Shown here piece after piece: positions 7,283 through 64,000 of a stretch of DNA of 64,000 nt. Within the stretch, counting starts at the first letter, position 1; each line of letters opens with the position of its first letter. Source of the DNA: Escherichia coli (GTDB lineage Bacteria; Pseudomonadota; Gammaproteobacteria; Enterobacterales; Enterobacteriaceae); NCBI RefSeq assembly GCF_003018255.1, contig NZ_CP027440.1; one strand, given 5' to 3'. The notes beneath the pieces are model-generated. The model was not told the origin of the DNA and did no database searches. It saw only the letters and a list, made by a program, of their open reading frames with translations. A program made the translations under genes and the position numbers.

Positions 7283-7470
7283 ATACAACAAAGCCGGGAA
7301 TTACCCGGCTTTGTTATGGAATAAGGCGGTGCCTAACTCGACGTTTCGCCCGATGGTTGATATAGCTACGCTGATATCAGAAGTTGGACGGCAGGCACCT
7401 TGTTGTGCGTCATTCGTATTTTATGTAGCACGTCCCGAAGGGGCTGACATAAGTCGGTGAATGAGCCACT
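7283..7470 (-). ncRNA. glmY: GlmY small RNA
   Basis: Sigma54 -24/-12 promoter immediately upstream, 5' region AGUGGCUCAUUCACC, 3' terminator hairpin CAAAGCCGGG-N5-CCCGGCUUUG at 7289-7313; located between purL and glrK. Ends approximate. Confidence 0.7.
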
Positions 7471-16420: not shown

Positions 16421-16650
16421 TCCACACCAGAGCTTTGACGACACCACTCGTTTCAATGGGGGAATTCAGTGGCATGGTGTAAAGCACAGCAAAATTGCCA
16501 ATAACGAAACCGATTTTAATGTACTTATCAAAAAGCGGTCACGTTAATCTTTTTATCAATGTCGATTTCTTCGTAAAGGCTCGCGTTTTTTATGTCAGAG
16601 ATTGCAAGTTGCTTGTACAGGATAACGAAATTGATCCATAATCATTTCTG

Positions 16651-16669
16651 TTGGAATCGTGTGCTGCAC
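16651..16669 (+). repeat. 19-bp direct repeat, copy 2 (TTGGAATCGTGTGCTGCAC)
   Basis: Matches copy 1 at 18 of 19 positions; 249 bp downstream of copy 1. Confidence 0.6.
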
Positions 16670-16689
16670 AAAATTAAAGTTGTAAAGTG

Positions 16690-16722
16690 AAAACCCCCGT
16701 TCCTTACCAGTTCGGGGGTTTT
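16690..16722 (-). terminator. Rho-independent terminator downstream of acpS
   Basis: AAAACCCCCG-N13-CGGGGGTTTT hairpin flanked by A/T runs (could act bidirectionally). Confidence 0.6.
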
Positions 16723-16747
16723 ACTTTATAAAGAGAACGGTATTTTT

Positions 16748-18610: not shown

Positions 18611-20223
<1,613 letters not shown>

Positions 20224-20228
20224 TCAGC

Positions 20229-20319
20229 ACACGAAACAGACCTGATATACATGGCTCGGCTAACTGCTTCACTGCAGTTTCAGTTTACCGGTATATGGGG
20301 ACCAACGCTGTTTCGTGTG
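20229..20319 (-). promoter_or_regulatory. rnc leader stem-loop (RNase III autoregulatory site)
   Basis: Long inverted repeat CACACGAAACAG...CTGTTTCGTGTG in the rnc 5' UTR. Confidence 0.5.
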
Positions 20320-20464
20320 CCGTGGCAACCTAGAGGTGCCAACCTTAAACTTCGGGGGAATATTCTATACACAACGACGGGGGATGTCGTTAGCCACGGG
20401 AGATTTATCTCATAAATAATTCACGTTGTCGCCATAACGGCGACAACGTGAACGAAGATGGCTA

Positions 20465-21454: not shown

Positions 21455-23254
<1,800 letters not shown>

Positions 23255-23451
23255 AAAGTATGATTATTGTGCCTTAATGCCCGGTTAACCAGGCTTTTAG
23301 AAGTCGCTGTTCTGAGCTTAACGTCTGTATTAATAGAAACGCCGCATTCTACACTACAACATTGAGGCGAGGAAATGTTCATACCGTATGGATTGTGGTA
23401 TCTGGAAACGTCCTCGCATTTGTTATGCAAAATGCAACAAAGCCAGTGAAA

Positions 23452-23931
23452 TCACTGGCTCGCGTCTTCCGAAGATGTTTCAAATCGCACAAGGCCAGGC
23501 GGCAAGGCCACGCTTAAGATGATCGGTTGCCATTCAGACCGGGCAGCAAACTTTCGAGAGCAGCCACGTGCAATCAGGAATCCACCAACGCCACCGAGAA
23601 TCGCACCGCATAATGCTGCAATATCTGAAGCAAAGAGTAGCTGAAATAGTGAAGCGATGAGGAATAGTCCCACCAACGGCGACATATAAACCAGTAATGC
23701 GGAGCTAAGCAGGCTGCCTTCGGCGATTCCTAATTCTACTTTTTGCCCCGGCACTAACGGCTCATCACAGGGTACGACAATGGTATGCGTGGTTTGCGGG
23801 CCAAGTTTATTCAACACGCGGCTACCGCAACCGGCACGTGAAGCGCAGCTGCTGCATGAGGCTTTAACATCACAACTAACCAGCGCCTGCCCGTTTTCCC
23901 AGGAGACGACGGTAGCCCACTCTTTGATCAT
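23452..23931 (-). CDS. rseC: SoxR-reducing system protein RseC
   Basis: 159-aa membrane protein, last gene of the rpoE operon. Confidence 0.9.
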   Translation of the reverse strand: MIKEWATVVSWENGQALVSCDVKASCSSCASRAGCGSRVLNKLGPQTTHTIVVPCDEPLVPGQKVELGIAEGSLLSSALLVYMSPLVGLFLIASLFQLLFASDIAALCGAILGGVGGFLIARGCSRKFAARSEWQPIILSVALPPGLVRFETSSEDASQ

Positions 23932-24884
23932 TGCGCTGCCCCGAACTTAATATTCTCGGCAATGCGTTTCGCCGTTTGCGGCGGCAGTTCACCGACAATG
24001 GTGATTTCGGCGTTATCACGTACGCTTGTACTGACGGTTCTGCGCCCGGTGCGCAACATCTGATCGGTGCTCGATGGCGTAGCGCGGTTAACGTTTACCG
24101 AGAAGCTGAATAATCCGTCGGAATAGAGACGTGATTCGATAGGCATGTTGTCCATCGTCGGTAGCGGACGTCGACTACTGGAAACTTCGCTAAAACCCTG
24201 TGGCAACCAGGTTGGCGTCCAGCTGAATTTAGCTTTTTCACCTACAGGAACAGAAAGCAACGGCGGCAAATTTGCCTTCGCCAGCGTCTGCATACTGCTG
24301 CTGATATCCTGATTGACATTAAAAGCAATCACGCGAAATTGTTCCAGCGTTTCACCATCGCGATCAAGGAGATCAACCCGCATCGGTAATTTCGATTCGG
24401 TGTCCATCCACACGATGTAGCTGTAGCGTGTACCATCTCGGGCAACCACACGAATGACTTCGCAAAGACGATCAGCAATACGCGTGCGCCCGACGGAGAT
24501 AAAGTCGTAGTAAGGAGAAAGGCGTTTGAAATCGGTATAGATGAGCGATGGTAGAGAATCAACAATGTAATCGCCATTAAGCGTGAACGGTTCAAGTCCC
24601 GGTTCAAAATAGCTGATTTCATTGCCGCGCTGTACCACTTCCCGGCGCGGGCCATCCATTTGCAACAATTGTGCAAGAGGACGGTTATCGAGGCGTGCAT
24701 GTCGATAACGCAGAGACTCAACACCCTGTTTATTGATGCTGATGAATGACAGCTCGTAATTCAGTGACTGACTGGCCAGGTTCATCTGCTGTAATAACGC
24801 CCCGGACGCGGGAGTGGCCGAGGCGTTAGCAGAGAATAACAGGCTACCTGTCACTAATGACATGGCAAACCAAAGTTGCTTCAT
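23928..24884 (-). CDS. rseB: Sigma-E regulatory protein RseB
   Basis: 318-aa periplasmic protein with signal peptide; overlaps rseC by 4 bp. Confidence 0.9.
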   Translation of the reverse strand: MKQLWFAMSLVTGSLLFSANASATPASGALLQQMNLASQSLNYELSFISINKQGVESLRYRHARLDNRPLAQLLQMDGPRREVVQRGNEISYFEPGLEPFTLNGDYIVDSLPSLIYTDFKRLSPYYDFISVGRTRIADRLCEVIRVVARDGTRYSYIVWMDTESKLPMRVDLLDRDGETLEQFRVIAFNVNQDISSSMQTLAKANLPPLLSVPVGEKAKFSWTPTWLPQGFSEVSSSRRPLPTMDNMPIESRLYSDGLFSFSVNVNRATPSSTDQMLRTGRRTVSTSVRDNAEITIVGELPPQTAKRIAENIKFGAAQ

Positions 24885-42021: not shown

Positions 42022-42141
42022 ATGCCTGGCAGTTCCCTACTCTCGCATGGGGAGACCCCACACTACCATCGGCGCTACGGCGTTTCACTTCTGAGTTCGG
42101 CATGGGGTCAGGTGGGACCACCGCGCTAAGGCCGCCAGGCA
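42022..42141 (-). rRNA. rrfG: 5S ribosomal RNA
   Basis: 120-nt match to E. coli 5S rRNA (one base differs from the sequence I recall). Confidence 0.9.
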
Positions 42142-42238
42142 AATTCTGTTTTATCAACACGTCTCGTTATGACATGTCGATTTAATCTGTATCAGGCTGA
42201 AAATCTTCTCTCATCCGCCAAAACATCTTCGGCGTTGT

Positions 42239-45143
<2,905 letters not shown>

Positions 45144-45336
45144 TCACAACCCGAAGATGTTTCTTTCGATTCATCATCGTGTTGCGAAAATTTGAGAGAC
45201 TCACGAACAACTTTCGTTGTTCAGTGTTTCAATTTTCAGCTTGATCCAGATTTTTAAAGAGCAAATATCTCAAACATCACCCGAAGATGAGTTTTGAGAT
45301 ATTAAGGCAGGTGACTTTCACTCACAAACCAGCAAG

Positions 45337-45412
45337 TGGCGTCCCCTAGGGGATTCGAACCCCTGTTACCGCCGTGAAAGGGCGGTGTCCTGGGCCTCTA
45401 GACGAAGGGGAC
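45337..45412 (-). tRNA. gltW: tRNA-Glu (UUC) in the 16S-23S spacer
   Basis: 76-nt exact match to GTCCCCTTCGTCTAGAGGCCCAGGACACCGCCCTTTCACGGCGGTAACAGGGGTTCGAATCCCCTAGGGGACGCCA. Confidence 0.9.
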
Positions 45413-45497
45413 GTATCAGTCTGCTTCGCAAGACGCCTTGCTTTTCACTTTCTATCAGACAATCTGTGTGAGCACTGCAAAGTACGCTTCTTTAAGG

Positions 45498-47039
<1,542 letters not shown>

Positions 47040-47482: not shown

Positions 47483-50056
47483 TTACTGGACGGCGACAAT
47501 CCGGTCTTCATTAACTTCCAGGCGAATAACTTTACCCGGAACCAATTCACCAGACAGTATTTGCTGTGCCAGCGGGTTTTCGATCTGCTGCTGGATAGCA
47601 CGTTTCAGCGGACGTGCACCATAGACCGGATCGTAACCGTTCTCGCTCAGCAGTTTCAGCGCCTCGTCAGAAATGTGGATTTCATAACCACGTTCTTCCA
47701 GACGTTTGTACAGACGTTTCAACTGAATCTGCGCAATCGACGCAATGTGCTGTTCACCCAGCGGATGGAAGACCACCACTTCATCGATACGGTTAATGAA
47801 TTCCGGACGGAAGTTATGGCTTACCACACCGAGCACCAGCTCTTTCATGTGCGCATAATCCAGTTCACCGAAGCGTTCCTGAATCAAATCGGAACCGAGG
47901 TTAGAGGTCATAATGACAACCGTATTACGGAAGTCGACCGTTCTCCCCTGCCCGTCAGTCAGACGCCCATCATCCAGTACCTGCAACAGAATGTTGAAGA
48001 CATCCGGATGCGCTTTTTCCACTTCATCCAGCAGGATGACGGAATACGGACGACGACGCACAGCTTCGGTCAGGTAGCCACCTTCTTCATAACCGACATA
48101 TCCCGGAGGCGCACCAACCAGACGAGACACCGAGTGTTTCTCCATAAACTCGGACATATCGATACGGACCATCGCCTCGTCGCTATCAAACATAAAGTTC
48201 GCTAGCGCCTTACAAAGCTCAGTTTTCCCCACACCGGTTGGGCCGAGGAACAGGAATGAACCAATCGGGCGATTTGGATCCGCCAGCCCCGCACGGCTAC
48301 GACGAATAGCGTTAGATACCGCATCAACCGCTTCGTTCTGACCAATAACGCGATGGTGCAGTTCTTGCTCCATACGCAGCAGTTTTTCGCGCTCGCTTTC
48401 CATCATGCGAGAAACCGGAATCCCCGTCCAACGCGCCAGCACTTCAGCAATTTCGGCATCGGTCACTTTATTACGCAACAGACGCATAGTTTTGCCTTCG
48501 AGCTGCGTTGCGGCTTCCAGTTGCTTTTCCAGTTCCGGGATTTTGCCGTATTGCAGTTCAGACATCCGCGCCAGGTCCCCCACACGGCGAGCCTGTTCAA
48601 TAGCGATTTTCGCCTGTTCCAGTTCCGCTTTAATGGTCTGTGTACCAGAAAGCGATGCTTTCTCTGCTTTCCACTCTTCTTCTAACTCGGAGTACTGACG
48701 TTCTTTGTCGCTCAGTTCTTCGTTGAGCATATCCAGGCGTTTTTTACTGGCTTCATCAGACTCTTTCATTAACGCCTGTTGTTCCAGTTTGAGCTGAATG
48801 ATACGGCGATCGAGTCGGTCGAGTTCTTCTGGTTTTGAGTCAATCTGCATACGAATGCTGGATGCTGCCTCATCGATCAGGTCGATGGCTTTATCTGGCA
48901 GCTGACGGTCAGCAATGTAGCGATGAGACAACGTCGCCGCTGCAACAATTGCCGGGTCAGTAATTTGCACATGGTGGTGCAGTTCGTAACGTTCTTTTAA
49001 GCCACGCAGAATAGCAATGGTGTCTTCAACAGAAGGCTCGGCAACAAACACTTTCTGGAAACGACGCTCCAGCGCAGCATCTTTTTCGATGTACTGGCGA
49101 TATTCGTCAAGCGTCGTGGCACCTACGCAGTGCAATTCACCACGCGCCAGCGCCGGTTTCAGCATGTTTCCGGCGTCCATTGCGCCATCGGCTTTACCCG
49201 CACCGACCATGGTATGTAATTCGTCGATAAACAGGATGACGTTGCCTTCCTGTTTGGCAAGATCGTTAAGCACGCCTTTTAAACGTTCTTCAAACTCACC
49301 GCGATATTTCGCCCCAGCCACCAGCGCGCCCATATCCAGCGCCAGTACGCGGCGGCCTTTCAACCCTTCCGGCACTTCGCCGTTGATAATACGCTGCGCC
49401 AGACCTTCAACGATGGCAGTTTTACCGACACCGGGTTCACCAATCAGTACCGGGTTATTTTTAGTACGACGTTGCAGCACCTGAATGGTACGGCGAATTT
49501 CTTCATCACGACCAATCACCGGATCGAGTTTGCCCTGTTCGGCTCGTTCGGTAAGGTCGATGGTATATTTTTTCAAAGCCTGACGTTGGTCTTCAGCACC
49601 TTGATCGTTCACGCTTTCACCTCCACGCATTTGTTCAATCGCTTGAGTAATGTTGGCGGTGGTCGCCCCTGCTGCTTTCAGGATGTCGGCCAGCGTGCCG
49701 CGAGACTCAAGTGCCGCCAGAACGAACAGTTCTGACGAGATAAAGTTATCACCACGTTTTTGCGCCAGCTTGTCGCAAAGATTAAGAACGCGCACCAGAT
49801 CCTGTGATGGCTGGACATCACCACCAGTACCTTCAACCTGTGGTAAACGATTTAATGCCTGATTGATATCTGTGCGCAACTGGCCAGCATTAATGCCAGC
49901 GGATGTTAATAAAGGACTAACCGAACCCCCTTCCTGATTCAGCAGGGCGCTCATTAAATGAAGTGGTTCGATGAATTGGTTGTCGTGCCCGAGTGCAAGT
50001 GATTGGGCATCGGCAAGAGCAAGCTGGAATTTATTAGTAAGACGATCCAGACGCAT
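47483..50056 (-). CDS. clpB: Disaggregase chaperone ClpB
   Basis: 857-aa product starting [18 protein letters not shown]; two AAA+ modules and coiled-coil M domain. Confidence 0.95.
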
Positions 50057-50094
50057 AACTCCTCCCATAACGGATCAAAGTTGCTACTGGAGAT

Positions 50095-50123
50095 TAAATG
50101 AGGTCATCCCTCAATTATTCAAG
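50095..50123 (-). promoter_or_regulatory. Sigma32 heat-shock promoter of clpB (CTTGAA-N14-CCTCATTTA)
   Basis: Match to the sigma32 consensus CTTGAAA/CCCCATNT with correct spacing. Confidence 0.55.
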
Positions 50124-50185
50124 GTTATTGACCAGATTAATGTGAAAAGAAAATCACGCGTACCGGATCGTCTTGATTCTTTAGG

Positions 50186-54866: not shown

Positions 54867-54922
54867 GTTGACAGCGTGAAAACAGTACGGGTACTGTACT
54901 AAAGTCACTTAAGGAAACAAAC

Positions 54923-54970
54923 ATGAAACACACACCGTTTTTCTTCGCATTCTTTTTTACCTTCCCCTGA
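54923..54970 (+). CDS. pheL: pheA leader peptide (15 aa, 7 Phe codons)
   Basis: Translates to [15 protein letters not shown]; immediately followed by the attenuator. Confidence 0.8.
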   Translation: [15 protein letters not shown]

Positions 54971-55016
54971 ATGGGAGGCGTTTCGTCGTGTGAAACAGAA
55001 TGCGAAGACGAACAAT

Positions 55017-55046
55017 AAGGCCTCCCAAATCGGGGGGCCTTTTTTA
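55017..55046 (+). terminator. pheA attenuator terminator
   Basis: AAGGCCTCCC-AAAT-CGGGGGGCCTT hairpin followed by a T-run, 20 bp upstream of the pheA ATG. Confidence 0.7.
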
Positions 55047-55068
55047 TTGATAACAAAAAGGCAACACT

Positions 55069-56271: not shown

Positions 56272-57393
56272 TTAGTGACGGTTGTCATTCGCCTGACGCA
56301 ATAACACGCGGCTTTCACTCTGAAAACGCTGTGCGTAATCGCCGAACCAGTGCTCCACCTTGCGGAAACTGTCAATAAACGCCTGCTTATCGCCCTGCTC
56401 CAGCAACTCAATCGCCTCGCCGAAACGCTTATAGTAACGTTTGATTAACGCCAGATTACGCTCTGACGACATAATAATGTCGGCATACAGTTGCGGATCC
56501 TGGGCAAACAGTCGCCCAACCATCGCCAGCTCAAGGCGGTAAATCGGCGAAGAAAGCGCCAGAAGTTGCTCAAGCTGAACATTTTCTTCTGCCAGGTGCA
56601 GCCCATAAGCAAAAGTAGCAAAGTGGCGCAGTGCCTGAATAAACGCCATATTCTGATCGTGCTCGACAGCGCTAATACGATGCAGCCGAGCGCCCCAGAC
56701 CTGAATTTGCTCCAGAAACCATTGGTATGCTTCCGGCTTACGTCCATCACACCAGACCACAACTTGTTTTGCCAGGCTACCGCTGTCCGGGCCGAACATC
56801 GGGTGTAACCCCAGCACCGGACCATCATGCGCCGCCAGCATGGCCTGTAATGGTCCATTTTTCACCGATGCCAGATCGACCAGAATACAATCTTTCGGTA
56901 AAGGCGGTAATTTGCCAATAACTTGTTCAGTAACGTGGATGGGCACACTAACAATCACCATTCCGGCATCGGCAACTATCTCAGCCGCTCGATCCCAGTC
57001 ATGTTGCTCCAGAATCCGCACCTGATAACCCGATAGTGTCAGCATCTTCTCGAACAGGCGTCCCATCTGACCGCCACCGCCGACGATAACCACCGGGCGC
57101 AGTGACGGACAAAGCGTTTTAAATCCTTTGTCGTTTTCACTGGAGTAAGATTCACGCATCACCCGACGCAAAACATCCTCAATCAGATCTGGCGGTACAC
57201 CCAGAGCTTCCGCCTCTGCACGACGCGAGGCCAACATAGATGCCTCGCGCTCCGGAACATAAATAGGCAGTCCAAAGCGGCTTTTCACCTCGCCCACTTC
57301 AGCAACCAGTTCCAGACGCTTCGCTAATAAATTCAGCAGCGCTTTATCGACTTCATCAATTTGATCGCGTAATGCGGTCAATTCAGCAACCAT
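56272..57393 (-). CDS. tyrA: Bifunctional chorismate mutase / prephenate dehydrogenase
   Basis: 373-aa ORF; convergent with pheA. Confidence 0.95.
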
Positions 57394-57403
57394 AATAAAC
57401 CTC

Positions 57404-58474
57404 TTAAGCCACGCGAGCCGTCAGCTGCCCGTTCAGATCCTGATGAATTTCACGCAGCAAGGCATCGGTCATTTCCCAGCTAATGCAGGCATCGGTTACG
57501 GATACACCGTATTTCATTTCACTGCGCGGTTGCTCGGAAGACTGATTGCCCTCGTGGATATTACTTTCGATCATCAGACCAATAATTGAGCGATTGCCAT
57601 CTTTGATTTGAGCAACCACGGATTCTGCCACCGCAGGCTGACGGCGATAATCTTTATTGGAATTACCGTGGCTGCAATCTACCATCAGAGACGGGCGCAG
57701 TCCCGCCTGTTCCATCTCTTTTTCACATTGCGCAACATCCGCAGGGCTATAGTTCGGCGCTTTACCACCGCGCAGGATCACATGCCCGTCCGGATTCCCC
57801 TGAGTTTGTAGCAACGCCACCTGCCCTGCCTGGTTAATGCCAACAAAACGGTGCGGCTGGGCGGCGGCACGCATAGCGTTAATAGCCGTTGCAAGGCTGC
57901 CGTCGGTGCCGTTTTTAAAACCAACCGGCATGGAAAGCCCGGAGGCCATTTCACGGTGTGTTTGCGATTCCGTTGTACGAGCACCAATTGCTGACCAGCT
58001 AAACAGATCGCCCAGGTATTGCGGGCTATTCGGATCTAACGCTTCCGTCGCCAGTGGCAGTCCCATATTCACCAGCTCAAGCAGCAATTTACGCGCGATC
58101 TGCAGCCCGGCTTCTACATCAAAAGAGCCATCCATATGGGGATCGTTAATCAACCCTTTCCAACCGACAGTGGTACGGGGTTTTTCAAAATAGACGCGCA
58201 TTACCAGATAGAGGCTATCGCTGACCTCTGCGGCAAGGGCTTTAAATCGACGAGCATATTCCAGAGCAGTTTCCGGATCATGAATGGAACAAGGACCACA
58301 TACTACCAACAGACGAGGATCGCGCCCGGCGATAATATCTGAAATGGTTTTACGCGAGTCAGCAATCTGGGCTTCCTGTTGCAGGCTTAATGGAAAAGCG
58401 GCCTTCAGTTGTTCCGGAGTCATTAAAACTTGTTCGTCGGTAATATGTACGTTATTCAGCGCGTCTTTTTGCAT
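57404..58474 (-). CDS. aroF: Tyr-sensitive DAHP synthase
   Basis: 356-aa product starting [15 protein letters not shown] (ORF track start trimmed). Confidence 0.95.
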
Positions 58475-58568
58475 GATGGCGATCCTGTTTATGCTCGTTT
58501 GCGATAGTTGATCCTCAGCGAGGATGACGTAACGATAACACATAAAGTAAAGTTTTCAATCCATATTT

Positions 58569-58638
58569 CGTACATTTTTCTTTACACAAGCAATTTATTC
58601 GCGCTTTTAACCCTTGTTTATGTATAAATAAATTTACA
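58569..58638. promoter_or_regulatory. TyrR boxes in the aroF promoter region
   Basis: Minus-strand TGTAAA-N6-TGTACG (58569-58586) and TGTAAA-N6-TATACA (58621-58638) match the TGTAAA-N6-TTTACA consensus. Confidence 0.5.
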
Positions 58639-58683
58639 CCACCTTTGAAAACAATCCGCTATGCTTTGAAAAAGGAGAAAGAA

Positions 58684-59049
58684 ATGATGAAAAAGTTTAT
58701 CGCCCCCTTGTTGGCTTTACTGGTTAGCGGATGTCAGATTGATCCTTATACTCACGCGCCAACCTTGACCAGCACCGACTGGTATGATGTTGGTATGGAA
58801 GATGCGATATCGGGCAACGCCATAAAAGATGACGATGCATTTAGCGATTCACAGGCGGATCGCGGTCTATACCTTAAAGGATATGCCGAAGGACAAAAGA
58901 AAACTTGCCAGACCGATTTTACTTATGCCCGAGGACTTTCCGGTAAAAGCTTTCCTGCCAGCTGCAACAATGTTGAAAATGCCAGCCAACTGCATGAAGT
59001 ATGGCAAAAAGGGGCTGATGAAAATGCCAGCACAATACGATTAAATTAA
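58684..59049 (+). CDS. yfiL: Putative lipoprotein YfiL
   Basis: 121-aa product starting MMKKFIAPLLALLVSGCQ (lipobox). Confidence 0.8.
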   Translation: MMKKFIAPLLALLVSGCQIDPYTHAPTLTSTDWYDVGMEDAISGNAIKDDDAFSDSQADRGLYLKGYAEGQKKTCQTDFTYARGLSGKSFPASCNNVENASQLHEVWQKGADENASTIRLN

Positions 59050-59198
59050 TTAAACCCCCACAAATAAATTAAACATGAGATTCTACTCATTGTGTTTTAT
59101 TTCTCACATTGATGACGACCGCATGAAAGAATGATATTTTAATGAGCATTCTGAAAAAATATCGATGCATTTCGAGCGAAGATGGTGAGGATCCCTGA

Positions 59199-59717
59199 AT
59201 GCGTTTTTCTCACCGACTGTTCTTACTGCTGATTCTCCTGCTGACGGGAGCACCAATACTCGCTCAGGAACCTTCTGACGTTGCGAAAAACGTGCGTATG
59301 ATGGTTTCCGGTATTGTCAGTTACACCCGCTGGCCTGCGCTATCAGGGCCACCAAAGTTATGTATCTTTTCATCTTCACATTTTAGTAACGCCCTACAAG
59401 AGAATGGCACGACATCTTTGCCTTATCTACCTGTCATCATTCACACTCAACAAGAGGCGATGATTTCAGGCTGCAATGGTTTTTATTTTGGCAACGAGTC
59501 ACCGACATTCCAGATGGAATTAACCGAACAATATCCGTCAAAGGCGTTATTATTAATTGCCGAACAAAATACCGAGTGCATTATTGGTAGCGCCTTTTGT
59601 CTAATCATCCACAATAATGACGTCAGATTTGCCGTAAACCTGGATGCCTTATCGCGTAGCGGTGTAAAGGTCAACCCGGATGTCTTAATGCTCGCACGGA
59701 AGAAAAATGATGGATAA
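59199..59717 (+). CDS. yfiR: Periplasmic repressor of YfiN/DgcN
   Basis: 172-aa secreted protein; first gene of yfiRNB; overlaps yfiN by 11 bp. Confidence 0.85.
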
Positions 59718-60933
59718 CGATAATTCTCTTAATAAGCGCCCCACGTTTAAAAGAGCATTACGCAACATCAGTATGACCAGCATATTTATCACTATGATGC
59801 TGATCTGGTTGCTGCTTTCCGTGACCTCGGTGCTGACCCTGAAACAGTACGCGCAAAAAAACCTGGCACTGACAGCAGCAACAATGACTTACAGTCTGGA
59901 AGCAGCTGTCGTTTTTGCCGATGGCCCTGCAGCAACTGAAACACTGGCAGCGCTGGGCCAGCAAGGCCAATTTTCAACTGCAGAAGTGCGTGATAAGCAG
60001 CAAAATATTCTGGCATCCTGGCATTACACCCATAAGGAACCAGGCGATACTTTCAGCAATTTCATAAGCCACTGGCTCTTCCCTGCCCCCATCATTCAGC
60101 CGATTCGTCACAATGGTGAAACCATTGGCGAAGTACGCTTAACTGCTCGCGACAGTTCAATCAGCCATTTTATCTGGTTTTCGCTCGCTGTCCTGACCGG
60201 TTGTATTCTGCTGGCATCAGGCATCGCAATTACCCTCACCCGCCATTTGCACAATGGCCTGGTGGAAGCGCTGAAAAATATCACCGATGTCGTACATGAT
60301 GTGCGTTCTAACCGCAATTTTTCCCGACGAGTTTCGGAAGAACGTATCGCTGAGTTTCACCGCTTCGCTCTCGACTTCAACAGTCTGCTGGATGAAATGG
60401 AAGAGTGGCAGCTTCGTTTACAGGCCAAAAATGCGCAGCTTTTACGTACCGCGCTACATGACCCATTAACCGGGCTGGCTAACCGCGCAGCGTTTCGTAG
60501 CGGCATCAACACGTTGATGAACAATTCCGATGCCCGAAAAACGTCGGCGTTACTATTTCTTGATGGCGATAATTTCAAATATATCAATGATATCTGGGGT
60601 CATGCGACGGGCGATAGAGTCTTGATTGAAATCGCAAAACGGTTAGCTGAATTTGGCGGGCTGCGACATAAAGCATACCGCCTGGGCGGCGATGAATTCG
60701 CGATGGTGCTCTATGATGTACAGTCGGAATCTGAAGTGCAGCAGATATGCTCAGCACTGACACAAATCTTTAATCGCCCGTTTGATCTTCATAATGGTCA
60801 TCAGACCACCATGACATTAAGCATTGGTTACGCGATGACCATTGAGCATGCCTCTGCGGAAAAATTACAAGAGCTGGCCGATCACAATATGTATCAGGCC
60901 AAACACCAGCGTGCCGAAAAGCTGGTGAGATAA
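59707..60933 (+). CDS. dgcN: Membrane diguanylate cyclase (GGDEF)
   Basis: 408-aa ORF with two TM segments, periplasmic region, HAMP and GGDEF domain (RLGGDEF). Confidence 0.9.
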
Positions 60934-60948
60934 CAAGGATATATCGAT

Positions 60949-61431
60949 ATGATAAAGCACCTGGTAGCACCCCTGATTTTCACCTCACTAATACTGACTG
61001 GCTGCCAGTCCCCTCAGGGAAAGTTTACTCCTGAGCAAGTCGCCGCTATGCAATCTTATGGATTTACTGAATCCGCCGGCGACTGGTCGCTGGGCTTATC
61101 AGATGCCATTCTGTTCGCAAAAAATGACTACAAATTGCTCCCGGAAAGCCAGCAACAGATCCAAACCATGGCAGCCAAATTGGCCTCGACAGGGCTAACG
61201 CATGCCCGTATGGATGGACACACCGACAACTATGGTGAAGACAGTTACAACGAAGCCTTATCATTGAAACGGGCGAATGTCGTGGCCGATGCATGGGCTA
61301 TGGGTGGACAAATTCCGCGCAGCAATCTCACCACACAGGGTTTAGGAAAAAAATATCCCATAGCCAGTAACAAGACCGCCCAGGGCCGCGCCGAGAACCG
61401 CCGCGTCGCAGTGGTGATTACTACCCCTTAA
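60949..61431 (+). CDS. yfiB: OmpA-family outer-membrane lipoprotein YfiB
   Basis: 160-aa ORF with lipobox LTGCQS and OmpA-C-like peptidoglycan-binding motif (NRRVAVVI). Confidence 0.9.
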   Translation: MIKHLVAPLIFTSLILTGCQSPQGKFTPEQVAAMQSYGFTESAGDWSLGLSDAILFAKNDYKLLPESQQQIQTMAAKLASTGLTHARMDGHTDNYGEDSYNEALSLKRANVVADAWAMGGQIPRSNLTTQGLGKKYPIASNKTAQGRAENRRVAVVITTP

Positions 61432-61507
61432 AACACGAGCAAACAGATAAAAAAAGGGCCAGCCAATTGGCCAGCCCTTCTTAACAGGATGTCGCTTAAG
61501 CGAAATC

Positions 61508-61858
<351 letters not shown>

Positions 61859-61896
61859 TTAATCTCTTATCCTGGGTAAACTGATATCTCGGGGGC

Positions 61897-62664
61897 TTAC
61901 GCCATCCCATCATGTTTATGTTGCTGTTGTGCGTGTTCCGTTTTGAACTCCGCCAGCAACCTTGCTTGCTCTTCAGTCAGAGCCAGGTTTTCCAGAAGTT
62001 CAGGTCTTCTAAGCCAGGTACGGCCCAGCGACTGTTTCAAACGCCAGCGACGTATCTCGGCATGGTTGCCCGACAGTAACACTGGCGGAACTTCCATCCC
62101 TTCTAACACCTCAGGCCGCGTATAGTGCGGGCAATCCAGCAATCCTTCAGCAAAGGAATCTTCCGTTGCCGAGGCTTCATGTCCCAGTACTCCCGGAATA
62201 AACCGGGAAACGGAGTCAATCAGCGTCATTGCTGGTAACTCACCACCACTGAGAACGTAATCGCCGATTGACCATTCTTCGTCAATTTCGGTTTGGATCA
62301 CGCGCTCATCTATACCTTCGTAGCGACCGCACACCAGAATCAATTTTTGATTCGTTGCCAGTTCGCTGACGCCCGCTTGATCAAGCTTGCGTCCCTGTGG
62401 TGACAGATAAATCACCTTTGCGCCTTCACCCGCCGCGGCTTTTGCTGCATGAATGGCGTCCCGCAAGGGTTGCACCATCATTAACATCCCCGGTCCGCCG
62501 CCGTAAGGACGATCGTCCACGGTACGGTGCCGGTCATGCGTGAAGTCGCGAGGACTCCAGCTCTGGATGCTCAGCAGGCCATTTTTAACTGCCCGGCCAG
62601 TTACCCCGTAATCGGTAATTGCGCGGAACATTTCAGGAAACAGGCTAATTATGCCAATCCACAT
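61897..62664 (-). CDS. trmD: tRNA (guanine37-N1)-methyltransferase
   Basis: 255-aa ORF starting [13 protein letters not shown]. Confidence 0.95.
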
Positions 62665-62694
62665 AGCGCCGTCTTTTACCGTTTATCCGGTGGT

Positions 62695-63243
62695 TTAAAA
62701 ACCAGGATCCCAATCTACTTCGATTGAACGAGTAGTGAGATCGACTTTCTTGATAACCTGCCCATCGAGGAACGGTACGAGACGTTCCTTGATACCAAAC
62801 GCATCTTTCAGGTTTGCCTTAATGACGAGAACGTCATTAGATCCGGTTTCCATCATATCGACGACTTTACCGAGATCGTAGCCTTCAGTGGTTACTACCT
62901 GGCAGCCCATCAAGTCTTTCCAGTAGTAGTCACCCTCTTCAAGCTGAGGCAACTGCGATGAATCCACGACAATTTCACAATTCGTCAGCAGGTTCGCCGC
63001 ATCACGATCGTCAACGCCTTTCAGCTTGATGATCATGTCCTGATTGTGGTGCTTCCAGCTTTCCAGCTGGACTTGCTGCCACTGACCCGCCTTCTGGATA
63101 AACCAGGGCTGATAGTCAAAAATGCTTTCGGCGTCTTCGGTGGAAGAAAACACTCTGAGCCACCCACGAATACCGTAAGACGAACCCATTTTTCCCAAAA
63201 CGATGGGATCAACAGGTGCTTGCGCGGTGAGTTGTTTGCTCAT
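62695..63243 (-). CDS. rimM: Ribosome maturation factor RimM
   Basis: 182-aa product starting [18 protein letters not shown]. Confidence 0.9.
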
Positions 63244-63261
63244 CATGACCACCGTGACAGA

Positions 63262-63588
<327 letters not shown>

Positions 63589-63646
63589 TTACTGATTTCT
63601 GGAGAAAATGCAATCAGCAGTTAATAACTCTGTCGCATAAGGTCAT

Positions 63647-64000
63647 TTAGCGACCAGGAAATCCCGGCGGCATCATACCCTTCATGCTTCTCATCATCTT
63701 CGCCATTCCGCCCTTCTTCATTTTCTTCATCATGCGCTGCATGTCGTCGAACTGTTTCAGAAGACGGTTAACGTCCTGCACCTGCATACCGCAACCGGCA
63801 GCGATACGGCGTTTACGCGAACCTTTGATGATTTCTGGCTTAGCGCGCTCTTTCATCGTCATCGAGTTGATGATGGCTTCCATACGCACCAGCACTTTAT
63901 CGTCCATCTGCGACTTGACGTTATCCGGGATCTGCCCCATGCCCGGCAGTTTGCCCATCAGGCTGGCCATGCCGCCCATATTTTTCATCTGGCGCAGTTG
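63647..64000 (-). CDS. ffh: Signal recognition particle protein Ffh, 3' part (5' end outside window)
   Basis: Met-rich M-domain C-terminus (…MMKKMKKGGMAKMMRSMKGMMPPGFPGR); frame stays open to the window edge. Confidence 0.9.
   Translation of the reverse strand, partial: QLRQMKNMGGMASLMGKLPGMGQIPDNVKSQMDDKVLVRMEAIINSMTMKERAKPEIIKGSRKRRIAAGCGMQVQDVNRLLKQFDDMQRMMKKMKKGGMAKMMRSMKGMMPPGFPGR

Follow-up and report, generated by a model that had tools for sequence, protein, structure and literature searches.

The three genes described here form, with very little room for doubt, the chromosomal yfiR-dgcN(yfiN)-yfiB operon of Escherichia coli, which is orthologous to b2603-b2605 of strain K-12 and to the YfiBNR system of Pseudomonas aeruginosa. 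They are located in a 64,000-nt stretch of E. coli DNA (contig NZ_CP027440.1), referred to as the window. Every gene and motif required by the published mechanism is, as judged from sequence, intact. The operon links stress in the periplasm to production of the second messenger c-di-GMP, and a single rare substitution in the cyclase domain of DgcN, T296I, is all that is unusual about it. The operon is already known and its biology is well studied: yfiRNB is a textbook c-di-GMP module of essentially every E. coli, and its detection in the window matters little beyond correct annotation.

The ORF list and the raw sequence agree exactly on three complete and contiguous ORFs of the plus strand, as had been predicted. 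These are (i) yfiR at 59199-59717 (ATG at 59199, TAA at 59715-59717; 172 aa), encoding the predicted periplasmic repressor of DgcN, (ii) dgcN (yfiN) at 59707-60933 (ATG at 59707, TAA at 60931-60933; 408 aa), encoding an inner-membrane diguanylate cyclase, and (iii) yfiB at 60949-61431 (ATG at 60949, TAA at 61429-61431; 160 aa), encoding an outer-membrane lipoprotein of the OmpA/Pal-like type. Their lengths equal those of K-12 b2603, b2604 and b2605, with neither frameshifts nor internal stops, which bears out the earlier claim that all three are full length. The overlap of yfiR and dgcN, previously put at 11 bp, indeed covers 11 nt (59707-59717, plus strand; ATGATGGATAA, from the ORF list and the sequence), and would be reduced to 8 nt if dgcN began at the second ATG (59710). 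It is annotated likewise in K-12 and would fit a translational coupling of repressor and cyclase. The spacer between dgcN and yfiB is 15 nt long and contains AAGGA.

The gene names given in the original prediction were upheld by curated family models, since the NCBIfam equivalogs were passed and the Pfam domains DUF4154, CHASE8 plus GGDEF, and OmpA were found. The E-values of these models for the three proteins range from 8.7e-31 to 6e-151, and the locus DNA is present in 5425 of the 5426 complete E. coli genomes (95-100% identity); the identification is therefore not due to chance. The earlier view that the locus represents established biology and not a new system is likewise upheld. K-12 shares the gene order tyrA-aroF-yfiL-yfiR-dgcN-yfiB-rplS-trmD-rimM-rpsP-ffh. 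An E. coli draft assembly (GCA_031306295.3) matches the window without a difference over 7,227 nt, and the closest complete genome is that of strain JNE23-011, with a difference of 1 nt in 7,951.

Domain architecture and the published mechanism

YfiR (168 of 172 residues identical to the K-12 protein) matched the Pfam family DUF4154 ("YfiR/HmsC-like", 8.7e-31) and the NCBIfam equivalog sequest_YfiR (166.7 bits vs. a cutoff of 85), and could be aligned with crystal-structure chains of P. aeruginosa YfiR (5e-17). A putative signal peptide (59199-59264, plus strand; aa 1-22, followed by QE) coincides with a hydrophobic segment spanning aa 3-25, and cleavage would be expected after ILA by the usual AxA-type rule. 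All four cysteines (Cys55, Cys92, Cys127 and Cys134) align with the cysteines of P. aeruginosa YfiR; in published work the four cysteines of YfiR are described as forming two disulfides (PMC4887326). The first component of the tripartite system is thus represented by a predicted secreted protein of the DUF4154/YfiR family with four conserved cysteines.

DgcN (404 of 408 residues identical to K-12 DgcN) scored 502.8 bits with the NCBIfam equivalog DgcN/YfiN (cutoff 325). Kyte-Doolittle hydropathy (19-residue window mean ≥1.6) placed its first transmembrane segment at about aa 20-46 (59764-59844), and the second was placed by the same method at about aa 150-179 (60154-60243). The periplasmic sensor, which had been left unnamed in the original prediction, is a CHASE8 domain (aa 45-146, 59839-60144; PF17152, 1e-33); it is described as "PAS-like" in the literature and binds YfiR (PMC4992967). 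The GGDEF catalytic domain (aa 249-403, 60451-60915; PF00990, 7.9e-43) has its best solved relative in P. aeruginosa TpbB/YfiN (7a7e and 4iob) and carries the active-site motif G327-G-D-E-F331 (ggc ggc gat gaa ttc, 60685-60699). The RxxD inhibitory site is absent, and GLRH (aa 318-321) is found where it would be, in line with the published account of E. coli YfiN (PMC10127611). Two predicted transmembrane segments flank the CHASE8/PAS-like domain, and GG(D/E)EF is intact in the GGDEF domain at the C terminus; all of these features are encoded on the plus strand.

A HAMP domain had also been predicted for the cyclase. Of the Pfam domains named together with it, GGDEF and OmpA were found, but HAMP gave no match at E≤10, either with whole DgcN or with the isolated linker (aa 180-245, 60244-60441, plus strand). 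A phmmer search with the single linker sequence against sequences of solved structures produced nothing meaningful and no HAMP match. The linker stretch of DgcN matched BaeS weakly (E=5.7e-4), in a region which we take to be TM2 plus HAMP, and LapD provided similarly weak support. A profile of 23 linker sequences produced one marginal match, to Aer2 (E=0.09; motif FS-x-RV...D-x-N-S-L), in a stretch which, considering the layout of Aer2, presumably lies in a HAMP. An AlphaFold2 model of DgcN (96-sequence alignment, mean pLDDT 67.6), which was used for secondary structure only, contains helices at 149-201 and 211-272 separated by a break, with low confidence (pLDDT <50) at 188-211. These weak signals hint at a divergent HAMP-like helix-connector-helix, with a signalling helix after it. 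YfiN has been called HAMP-containing in the literature (PMC4992967).

YfiB (158 of 160 residues identical to K-12 YfiB) scored 349.2 bits with NCBIfam PRK09967 (cutoff 155) and 232.5 bits with OMP_LP_YfiB (cutoff 128), and matched P. aeruginosa YfiB structures at 8e-32. The lipobox L16-T-G-C19 (60994-61005, plus strand), with Gln at +2, contains the sole cysteine of the protein, Cys19, which aligns with the lipid-acceptor Cys26 of P. aeruginosa YfiB (PMC4887326). The OmpA-like peptidoglycan-binding domain was delimited by Pfam at aa 55-151 (61111-61401, plus strand; 7.7e-18). Within it, N59, D93, G96 and R108 align with N68, D102, G105 and R117 of P. aeruginosa, which are peptidoglycan-site residues, and, closer to the N terminus, F39 and W46 align with F48 and W55, by which P. 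aeruginosa YfiB anchors into YfiR (PMC4887326). YfiB thus possesses a lipobox cysteine, an OmpA/Pal-like domain and N-terminal residues aligned to the YfiR-contact positions.

The mechanism proposed for the operon is drawn from the literature on both E. coli and P. aeruginosa (PMC4992967, PMC10127611, PMC2837407, PMC3375315, PMC4887326). DgcN would act as a two-pass inner-membrane diguanylate cyclase, in which a HAMP-like linker joins a periplasmic CHASE8 domain to a cytoplasmic GGDEF domain lacking RxxD. Periplasmic YfiR would bind the periplasmic domain of DgcN and hold the cyclase off. Release of DgcN could occur in two ways: YfiR may misfold under reducing conditions, or it may be sequestered by YfiB, a peptidoglycan-binding lipoprotein of the outer membrane (the latter from Pseudomonas evidence). 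The released enzyme would convert GTP to c-di-GMP, by which motility would be lowered, and cellulose and biofilm formation raised. In E. coli subjected to additional envelope stress DgcN is proposed to move to the site of division and block division, and it may deplete GTP on gluconeogenic carbon sources.

Synthesis of c-di-GMP by YfiN, its repression by YfiR and the relief of this repression by YfiB or reducing stress have been described for K-12, UPEC and P. aeruginosa alleles (PMC4992967, PMC10127611, PMC13031359, PMC3375315), and yfiR mutants of E. coli with raised c-di-GMP were recovered in a genome-wide screen (PMC13031359). The same biochemistry is assumed for the allele of the window. 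The envelope-stress step, which formed part of the original prediction, comes in its YfiB-dependent form mainly from Pseudomonas work; in an E. coli yfiB knockout YfiN still relocated under envelope stress (PMC4992967), so this arm is less well established in E. coli. The presence of the intact operon indicates no more than the usual periplasmic redox/envelope input to biofilm formation, motility, division arrest and antibiotic tolerance.

The T296I substitution in DgcN

The earlier statement that the module appears functional is upheld for the ORFs and the catalytic motifs, but must be qualified by a rare substitution in DgcN. Codon 296 (60592-60594, plus strand) is ATC (Ile) in the window and ACC (Thr) in K-12 and nearly all orthologues. 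The site belongs to the ND-T-x-GH motif of the GGDEF domain, within the conserved stretch FK-x-x-ND-T-x-GH-x-x-GD, and among 113 enterobacterial cluster representatives it is occupied by Thr in 111 and by Asn in two, while Ile is found in none. Because of this conservation, the catalytic competence of the I296 enzyme is an assumption on our part. T296I is the sole nucleotide difference from JNE23-011 over the 7,951 nt compared, and a 61-mer spanning it found no 100% full-length match in any complete E. coli genome (61-nt megablast). Genomes scored as 100% identical over the whole locus fail this 61-mer because they differ at exactly that nucleotide.

There is a small but appreciable chance that the operon is structurally intact, but that the activity of DgcN has been weakened or altered by T296I, perhaps with a contribution from L357R. 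In that case the module would be silent in this lineage, wholly or in part, whether as one c-di-GMP input that was lost or tuned naturally or as a neutral hitch-hiker. Besides the rarity of the allele and the conservation of the stretch, this is favoured by the Pfam GGDEF score, which falls by 3.0 bits (149.4 to 146.4) upon replacement of Thr by Ile. On the other side, 146 bits are retained by the domain, and site 296 is placed outside the known catalytic and substrate-binding residues by our mapping onto PleD; we take these residues to be D286, N294, D303 and GGDEF 327-331, and all of them are intact. In active cyclases the equivalent position is occupied by other residues as well: P. aeruginosa YfiN/TpbB has Arg there, and 5m3c has Ser. 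The I296 allele occurs in natural isolates and draft assemblies (68 blocks of the contig index, 58 contigs counted), and its persistence across many of them does not suggest a damaging lesion. As for L357R, the 61-mer around it is identical in 133 complete genomes (61-nt megablast).

It is similarly doubtful, if conceivable, that T296I is a functionally meaningful natural allele, lowering or changing cyclase output, by which this lineage has retuned its YfiRNB stress-to-c-di-GMP input. If this were true, the input affected would be one that also drives growth arrest via GTP depletion; runaway activity of DgcN is costly because GTP is depleted (PMC10127611). An activity-changing T296I would provide a small natural example of the tuning of a cyclase that lacks feedback control. 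We prefer to regard the locus as the intact yfiR-dgcN-yfiB operon.

Boundaries of the transcription unit and integrity of the locus

The operon is preceded by yfiL, a DUF2799 lipoprotein gene (NCBIfam PRK11443) on the same strand, from which yfiR is separated by an AT-rich intergenic region of 149 nt (59050-59198, plus strand). At its end, 7 nt from the yfiR ATG, lies a Shine-Dalgarno-like GGTGAGGA, and the region presumably contains the yfiR promoter. Upstream of yfiR a sigma-70 consensus scan gave no site on the plus strand. It recovered six sites overall vs. 5.2 expected after shuffling, so no promoter is claimed, and it is so crude that a missed promoter means little. DgcN is reported to be under the control of the vegetative sigma-70 (PMC5635695).

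At the other end, a palindrome with a 14-bp stem (61451-61482) separates yfiB from the convergent rplS and has a T-run on the minus strand. On that strand it constitutes a strong intrinsic terminator for rplS (-28.3 kcal/mol, z -5.1), whereas on the plus strand, at the end of the yfi operon, the hairpin is weaker (-17.2 kcal/mol, z -2.2) and is followed by CUUCUU. In an Rfam search of the whole window no RNA family was found inside 58500-61900.

It is improbable, in our opinion, that the transcription unit is larger and that yfiL and yfiR-dgcN-yfiB are transcribed together, forming an envelope module of four genes. Such an arrangement would accord with the orientation of yfiL, the lipoprotein that it encodes and its adjacency to yfiR, kept in both K-12 and JNE23-011, as well as with the scans, which detected neither a plus-strand terminator between the two genes nor a promoter-like site before yfiR. 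However, the gap holds an AT-rich small hairpin with a U-rich tail (about 59073-59100; -7 kcal/mol, z -2.2), which could stop yfiL transcripts and may be a weak yfiL terminator, and the operon is defined in the literature as yfiRNB (PMC4992967). We retain the three-gene unit.

Many GGDEF/EAL genes have decayed in Shigella and in some E. coli lineages, truncated YfiR and DgcN variants occur in Shigella, and less than 80% of the yfi locus is retained in 57 of 5425 complete genomes, but the idea that the locus of the window is a decaying remnant (pseudogene) deserves virtually no credence and is refuted by its three full-length ORFs, with motifs and ribosome-binding sites intact.

Comparison with known systems

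The locus of K-12 MG1655 (b2603-b2605) has the same genes in the same order, with the same lengths (172, 408 and 160 aa), 11-nt overlap, 15-nt spacer and neighbours. The proteins of the window differ from those of K-12 by R61H, T64N, A69G and A70T in YfiR, by R109H, D111E, the rare T296I and L357R in DgcN, and by V10I and G103A in YfiB; at positions 109 and 111 of DgcN K-12 itself is the exception, being unlike 11 of the 12 other E. coli sequences in the alignment. The A-run next to the terminator palindrome is one A longer in the window.

Salmonella enterica yfiRN encodes orthologous YfiR and DgcN (the DgcN representative, P0105, is 75% identical) but, unlike the window, lacks yfiB (PMC4992967). 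A homologous trio is HmsCDE of Yersinia pestis, composed of the HmsC/YfiR-like periplasmic protein, the HmsD cyclase and the OmpA-like lipoprotein HmsE (PMC5550408); the likeness is based on the Pfam family name "YfiR/HmsC-like" and on description, and the output there is the Hms biofilm in fleas.

P. aeruginosa YfiBNR/TpbB (PA1119-PA1121), whose mechanism is the best studied and which alone has solved structures, shares the three protein families and the domain plan. The YfiR cysteines, the YfiB anchor residues (F48/W55) and the peptidoglycan-site residues of YfiB are conserved in the window, although the proteins have diverged (phmmer 5e-17 for YfiR, 8e-32 for YfiB and 1e-28 for YfiN), and L43, the site of activating mutations in P. 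aeruginosa YfiB, corresponds to Met34 in E. coli. Studies of the output have dealt with Pel/Psl polysaccharides and small-colony variants in Pseudomonas but with cellulose, motility, arrest of division and depletion of GTP in E. coli.

Identity and conservation of the operon

The three open reading frames of the original prediction were found on the plus strand exactly where it had placed them, both in the six-frame ORF list and in the raw sequence: yfiR (59199-59717; 172 aa), dgcN, also called yfiN (59707-60933; 408 aa), and yfiB (60949-61431; 160 aa). The raw sequence contains GGTGAGGA directly ahead of the ATG of yfiR. The proposed 11-bp overlap of yfiR and yfiN was also observed (59707-59717). 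The yfiR stop codon, TAA (59715-59717), falls inside the opening dgcN codons ATG ATG GAT AAC (from 59707), and the overlap is reduced to 8 nt when the second ATG is taken as the start. The 11-nt arrangement suggests that translation of the repressor and the cyclase may be coupled. The dgcN-yfiB spacer (15 nt) includes AAGGA. The interval's remaining ORFs, all short and located within the three genes in another frame or on the other strand, were given no weight.

The encoded proteins are equal in length to those of K-12 MG1655, which corroborates the claim that all three ORFs are full length, and differ from them at only a few positions (168/172 residues identical for YfiR, 404/408 for DgcN and 158/160 for YfiB). 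All parts of the operon are present and intact. The gene order (pheA, tyrA-aroF, yfiL, yfiR-dgcN-yfiB, then the convergent rplS-trmD-rimM-rpsP-ffh) is the same in the window, in K-12 MG1655 and in strain JNE23-011, the closest complete genome. Together with the matches to family models, this order and the near-identity to K-12 identify the locus as the yfiRNB operon of E. coli (K-12 b2603-b2605).

The 2451-nt locus was matched in 5425 of the 5426 complete E. coli genomes, in every case on the chromosome, with at least 80% of it covered in 5368, and the matching genomes annotate it everywhere as yfiR, dgcN and yfiB, which bears out its description as established biology. As judged from sequence, the operon is already known biology, and all of its defining features accessible at this level are present, HAMP aside. 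Less than 80% of the locus was found in 57 of the 5425 matching genomes, and a single genome gave no match, indicating that yfiRNB is disrupted or deleted in a small minority of strains. Shortened YfiR and DgcN variants from Shigella were also noted among the protein-collection entries.

Elsewhere in the window, Rfam identified a complete rRNA operon on the minus strand (42024-47039; 5S 42024-42139, 23S 42239-45143, a spacer tRNA and 16S 45498-47039) with a StyR-44 element inside it (45151-45259), as well as GlmY (7323-7470), rncO (20139-20353), AsrC (23136-23967), RyfD (50037-50175), the Phe leader (54922-55047) and the small RNA ohsC (16650-16727; 95.4 bits). We take the last to be the antitoxin half of the type I toxin-antitoxin system shoB-ohsC, a standard K-12-like element. 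These elements are expected for an ordinary E. coli chromosomal region and have no bearing on yfiRNB.

Domain architecture of the three proteins

YfiR matches the Pfam family DUF4154 (YfiR/HmsC-like; 8.7e-31) and the NCBIfam equivalog sequest_YfiR (166.7 bits; curated cutoff 85). The latter match and a hydrophobic N-terminal signal (aa 3-25, with ILA at its end, followed by QE) agree with its designation as a secreted periplasmic protein. Its four cysteines (Cys55, 92, 127 and 134) all align with cysteines in the solved structures of Pseudomonas aeruginosa YfiR, in which the disulfides are Cys71-Cys110 and Cys145-Cys152 (PMC4887326).

YfiB, in turn, is recognizable as an OmpA-like lipoprotein by its OmpA domain (Pfam, 7.7e-18) and the lipobox LTGC, with the sole cysteine at position 19; it also exceeds the cutoffs of PRK09967 (349.2 bits; cutoff 155) and OMP_LP_YfiB (232.5 bits; cutoff 128) in NCBIfam. 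F48 and W55 of P. aeruginosa YfiB, which in the complex are inserted into YfiR, correspond to F39 and W46 of the E. coli protein, and the peptidoglycan-site residues N68, D102, G105 and R117 to N59, D93, G96 and R108 in the window (PMC4887326).

DgcN clearly belongs to the NCBIfam equivalog DgcN/YfiN (502.8 bits; cutoff 325). According to Pfam it contains CHASE8 (aa 45-146; 1e-33), with one hydrophobic segment on each side (aa 20-46 and 150-179), and GGDEF (aa 249-403; 7.9e-43) with an intact motif at 327-331. GLRH replaces the RxxD of feedback-inhibited cyclases, as described for E. coli YfiN by Hwang and Harshey (PMC10127611).

The predicted membrane GGDEF cyclase is supported by the two hydrophobic segments and the GGDEF domain, but its HAMP domain was not recovered by domain search. 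The Pfam search proposed as a check, which returned GGDEF and OmpA, gave no HAMP match with E<=10, whether run on the whole protein, K-12 DgcN or the isolated linker, and a precomputed match was present in none of the 120 homologues listed. The published layout of YfiN is PAS-like, HAMP, GGDEF (PMC4992967). Several weak signals point in the same direction. NCBIfam places aa 169-236 on positions 172-238 of its BaeS model (E=5.7e-4), a stretch that presumably comprises the HAMP domain of BaeS together with the second transmembrane helix; LapD is matched by aa 159-404, and a histidine-kinase N-terminal module adjoining YfiR-like genes by aa 17-232. A linker profile built from 23 orthologues reached P. 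aeruginosa Aer2 at E=0.09 (common motif FS-x-RV...D-x-N-S-L), in a segment which we assume lies within one of the Aer2 HAMP domains. By eye, a 25-residue stretch of the linker seems to resemble the HAMP connector/second-helix consensus …DEIG-x-LA-x-x-FN-x-M…. The AlphaFold2 model has helices at 149-201 and 211-272 separated by a break, with pLDDT <50 at 188-211. The linker is probably a divergent HAMP.

A rare substitution in the GGDEF domain

DgcN differs from its K-12 counterpart at four positions (109, 111, 296 and 357). Among the other E. coli DgcN sequences aligned, 11 of 12 share H109 and E111, which makes K-12 the odd one out. L357R (plus strand, 60775-60777; cgc vs ctc in K-12) is an ordinary lineage polymorphism, since 133 complete E. 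coli genomes contain the same 61-mer across it. T296I (plus strand, codon 60592-60594) results from T instead of C at 60593, the only base differing from JNE23-011 across 7,951 shared nucleotides. The 61-mer across I296 had no full-length 100% match among complete E. coli genomes, and the allele is rare. It is nevertheless real and carried by natural draft assemblies: GCA_031306295.3 is identical to 56707-63933 of the window (7,227 nt), I296 included, and the public protein collection includes the exact 408-aa protein, with a count of 58 contigs.

The replaced threonine belongs to the FK-x-x-ND-T-x-GH-x-x-GD stretch. Across 113 cluster representatives of enterobacterial DgcN, which share 65-98% identity with the query, this site is Thr in 111, Asn in two and Ile in none, and the change lowers the Pfam GGDEF score by 3.0 bits. 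We nonetheless consider it unlikely that T296I materially changes DgcN activity: the equivalent residue is Arg in P. aeruginosa YfiN and Ser in another solved cyclase, the allele persists in many isolates, and the known metal- and guanine-binding residues (which, mapped onto PleD, we take to be D286, N294, D303 and the GGDEF motif) are untouched.

Operon boundaries and related systems

The lipoprotein gene yfiL (DUF2799; plus strand, 58684-59049) ends 149 nt upstream of yfiR. A consensus scan, whose total count was not above the shuffled expectation, detected no sigma-70-like site in this gap; in published data, dgcN is controlled by the vegetative sigma factor RpoD (PMC5635695). Downstream of yfiL there is a small, AT-rich hairpin whose tail is U-rich, and no plus-strand terminator was called by the scan between yfiL and yfiR. 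At the other end, the palindrome between yfiB and rplS (61451-61482) is asymmetric. On the minus strand it forms a 14-bp stem followed by a T7 run (-28.3 kcal/mol, z -5.1), and is a strong terminator of the convergent rplS operon. The plus-strand hairpin (-17.2 kcal/mol, z -2.2; followed only by CUUCUU) is weaker because two minus-strand G-U pairs turn into C-A mismatches. The window has A7 (the minus-strand T7) vs A6 in K-12, which explains the 1 nt by which its length departs from that of most E. coli genomes.

According to the literature, YfiR would repress YfiN by binding its periplasmic domain, and reducing conditions or loss of DsbA would cause YfiR to misfold, releasing YfiN. In P. aeruginosa, activated YfiB spans the peptidoglycan and sequesters YfiR (PMC2837407, PMC3375315, PMC4655355, PMC4887326). 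In E. coli, strains without YfiR have more c-di-GMP, make more cellulose and are less motile, and yfiR mutants are among the high-c-di-GMP strains of a genome-wide biosensor screen (PMC13031359). When envelope stress is added, derepressed YfiN relocates to the division site and division is blocked, for which yfiB is not needed (PMC4992967). YfiN activity can also deplete GTP, as it lacks the inhibitory site, leading to a halt in growth when the carbon source is gluconeogenic (PMC10127611).

The closest known systems are, in order, the K-12 operon itself, YfiBNR of P. aeruginosa, yfiRN of Salmonella, which is without yfiB, and HmsCDE of Yersinia.
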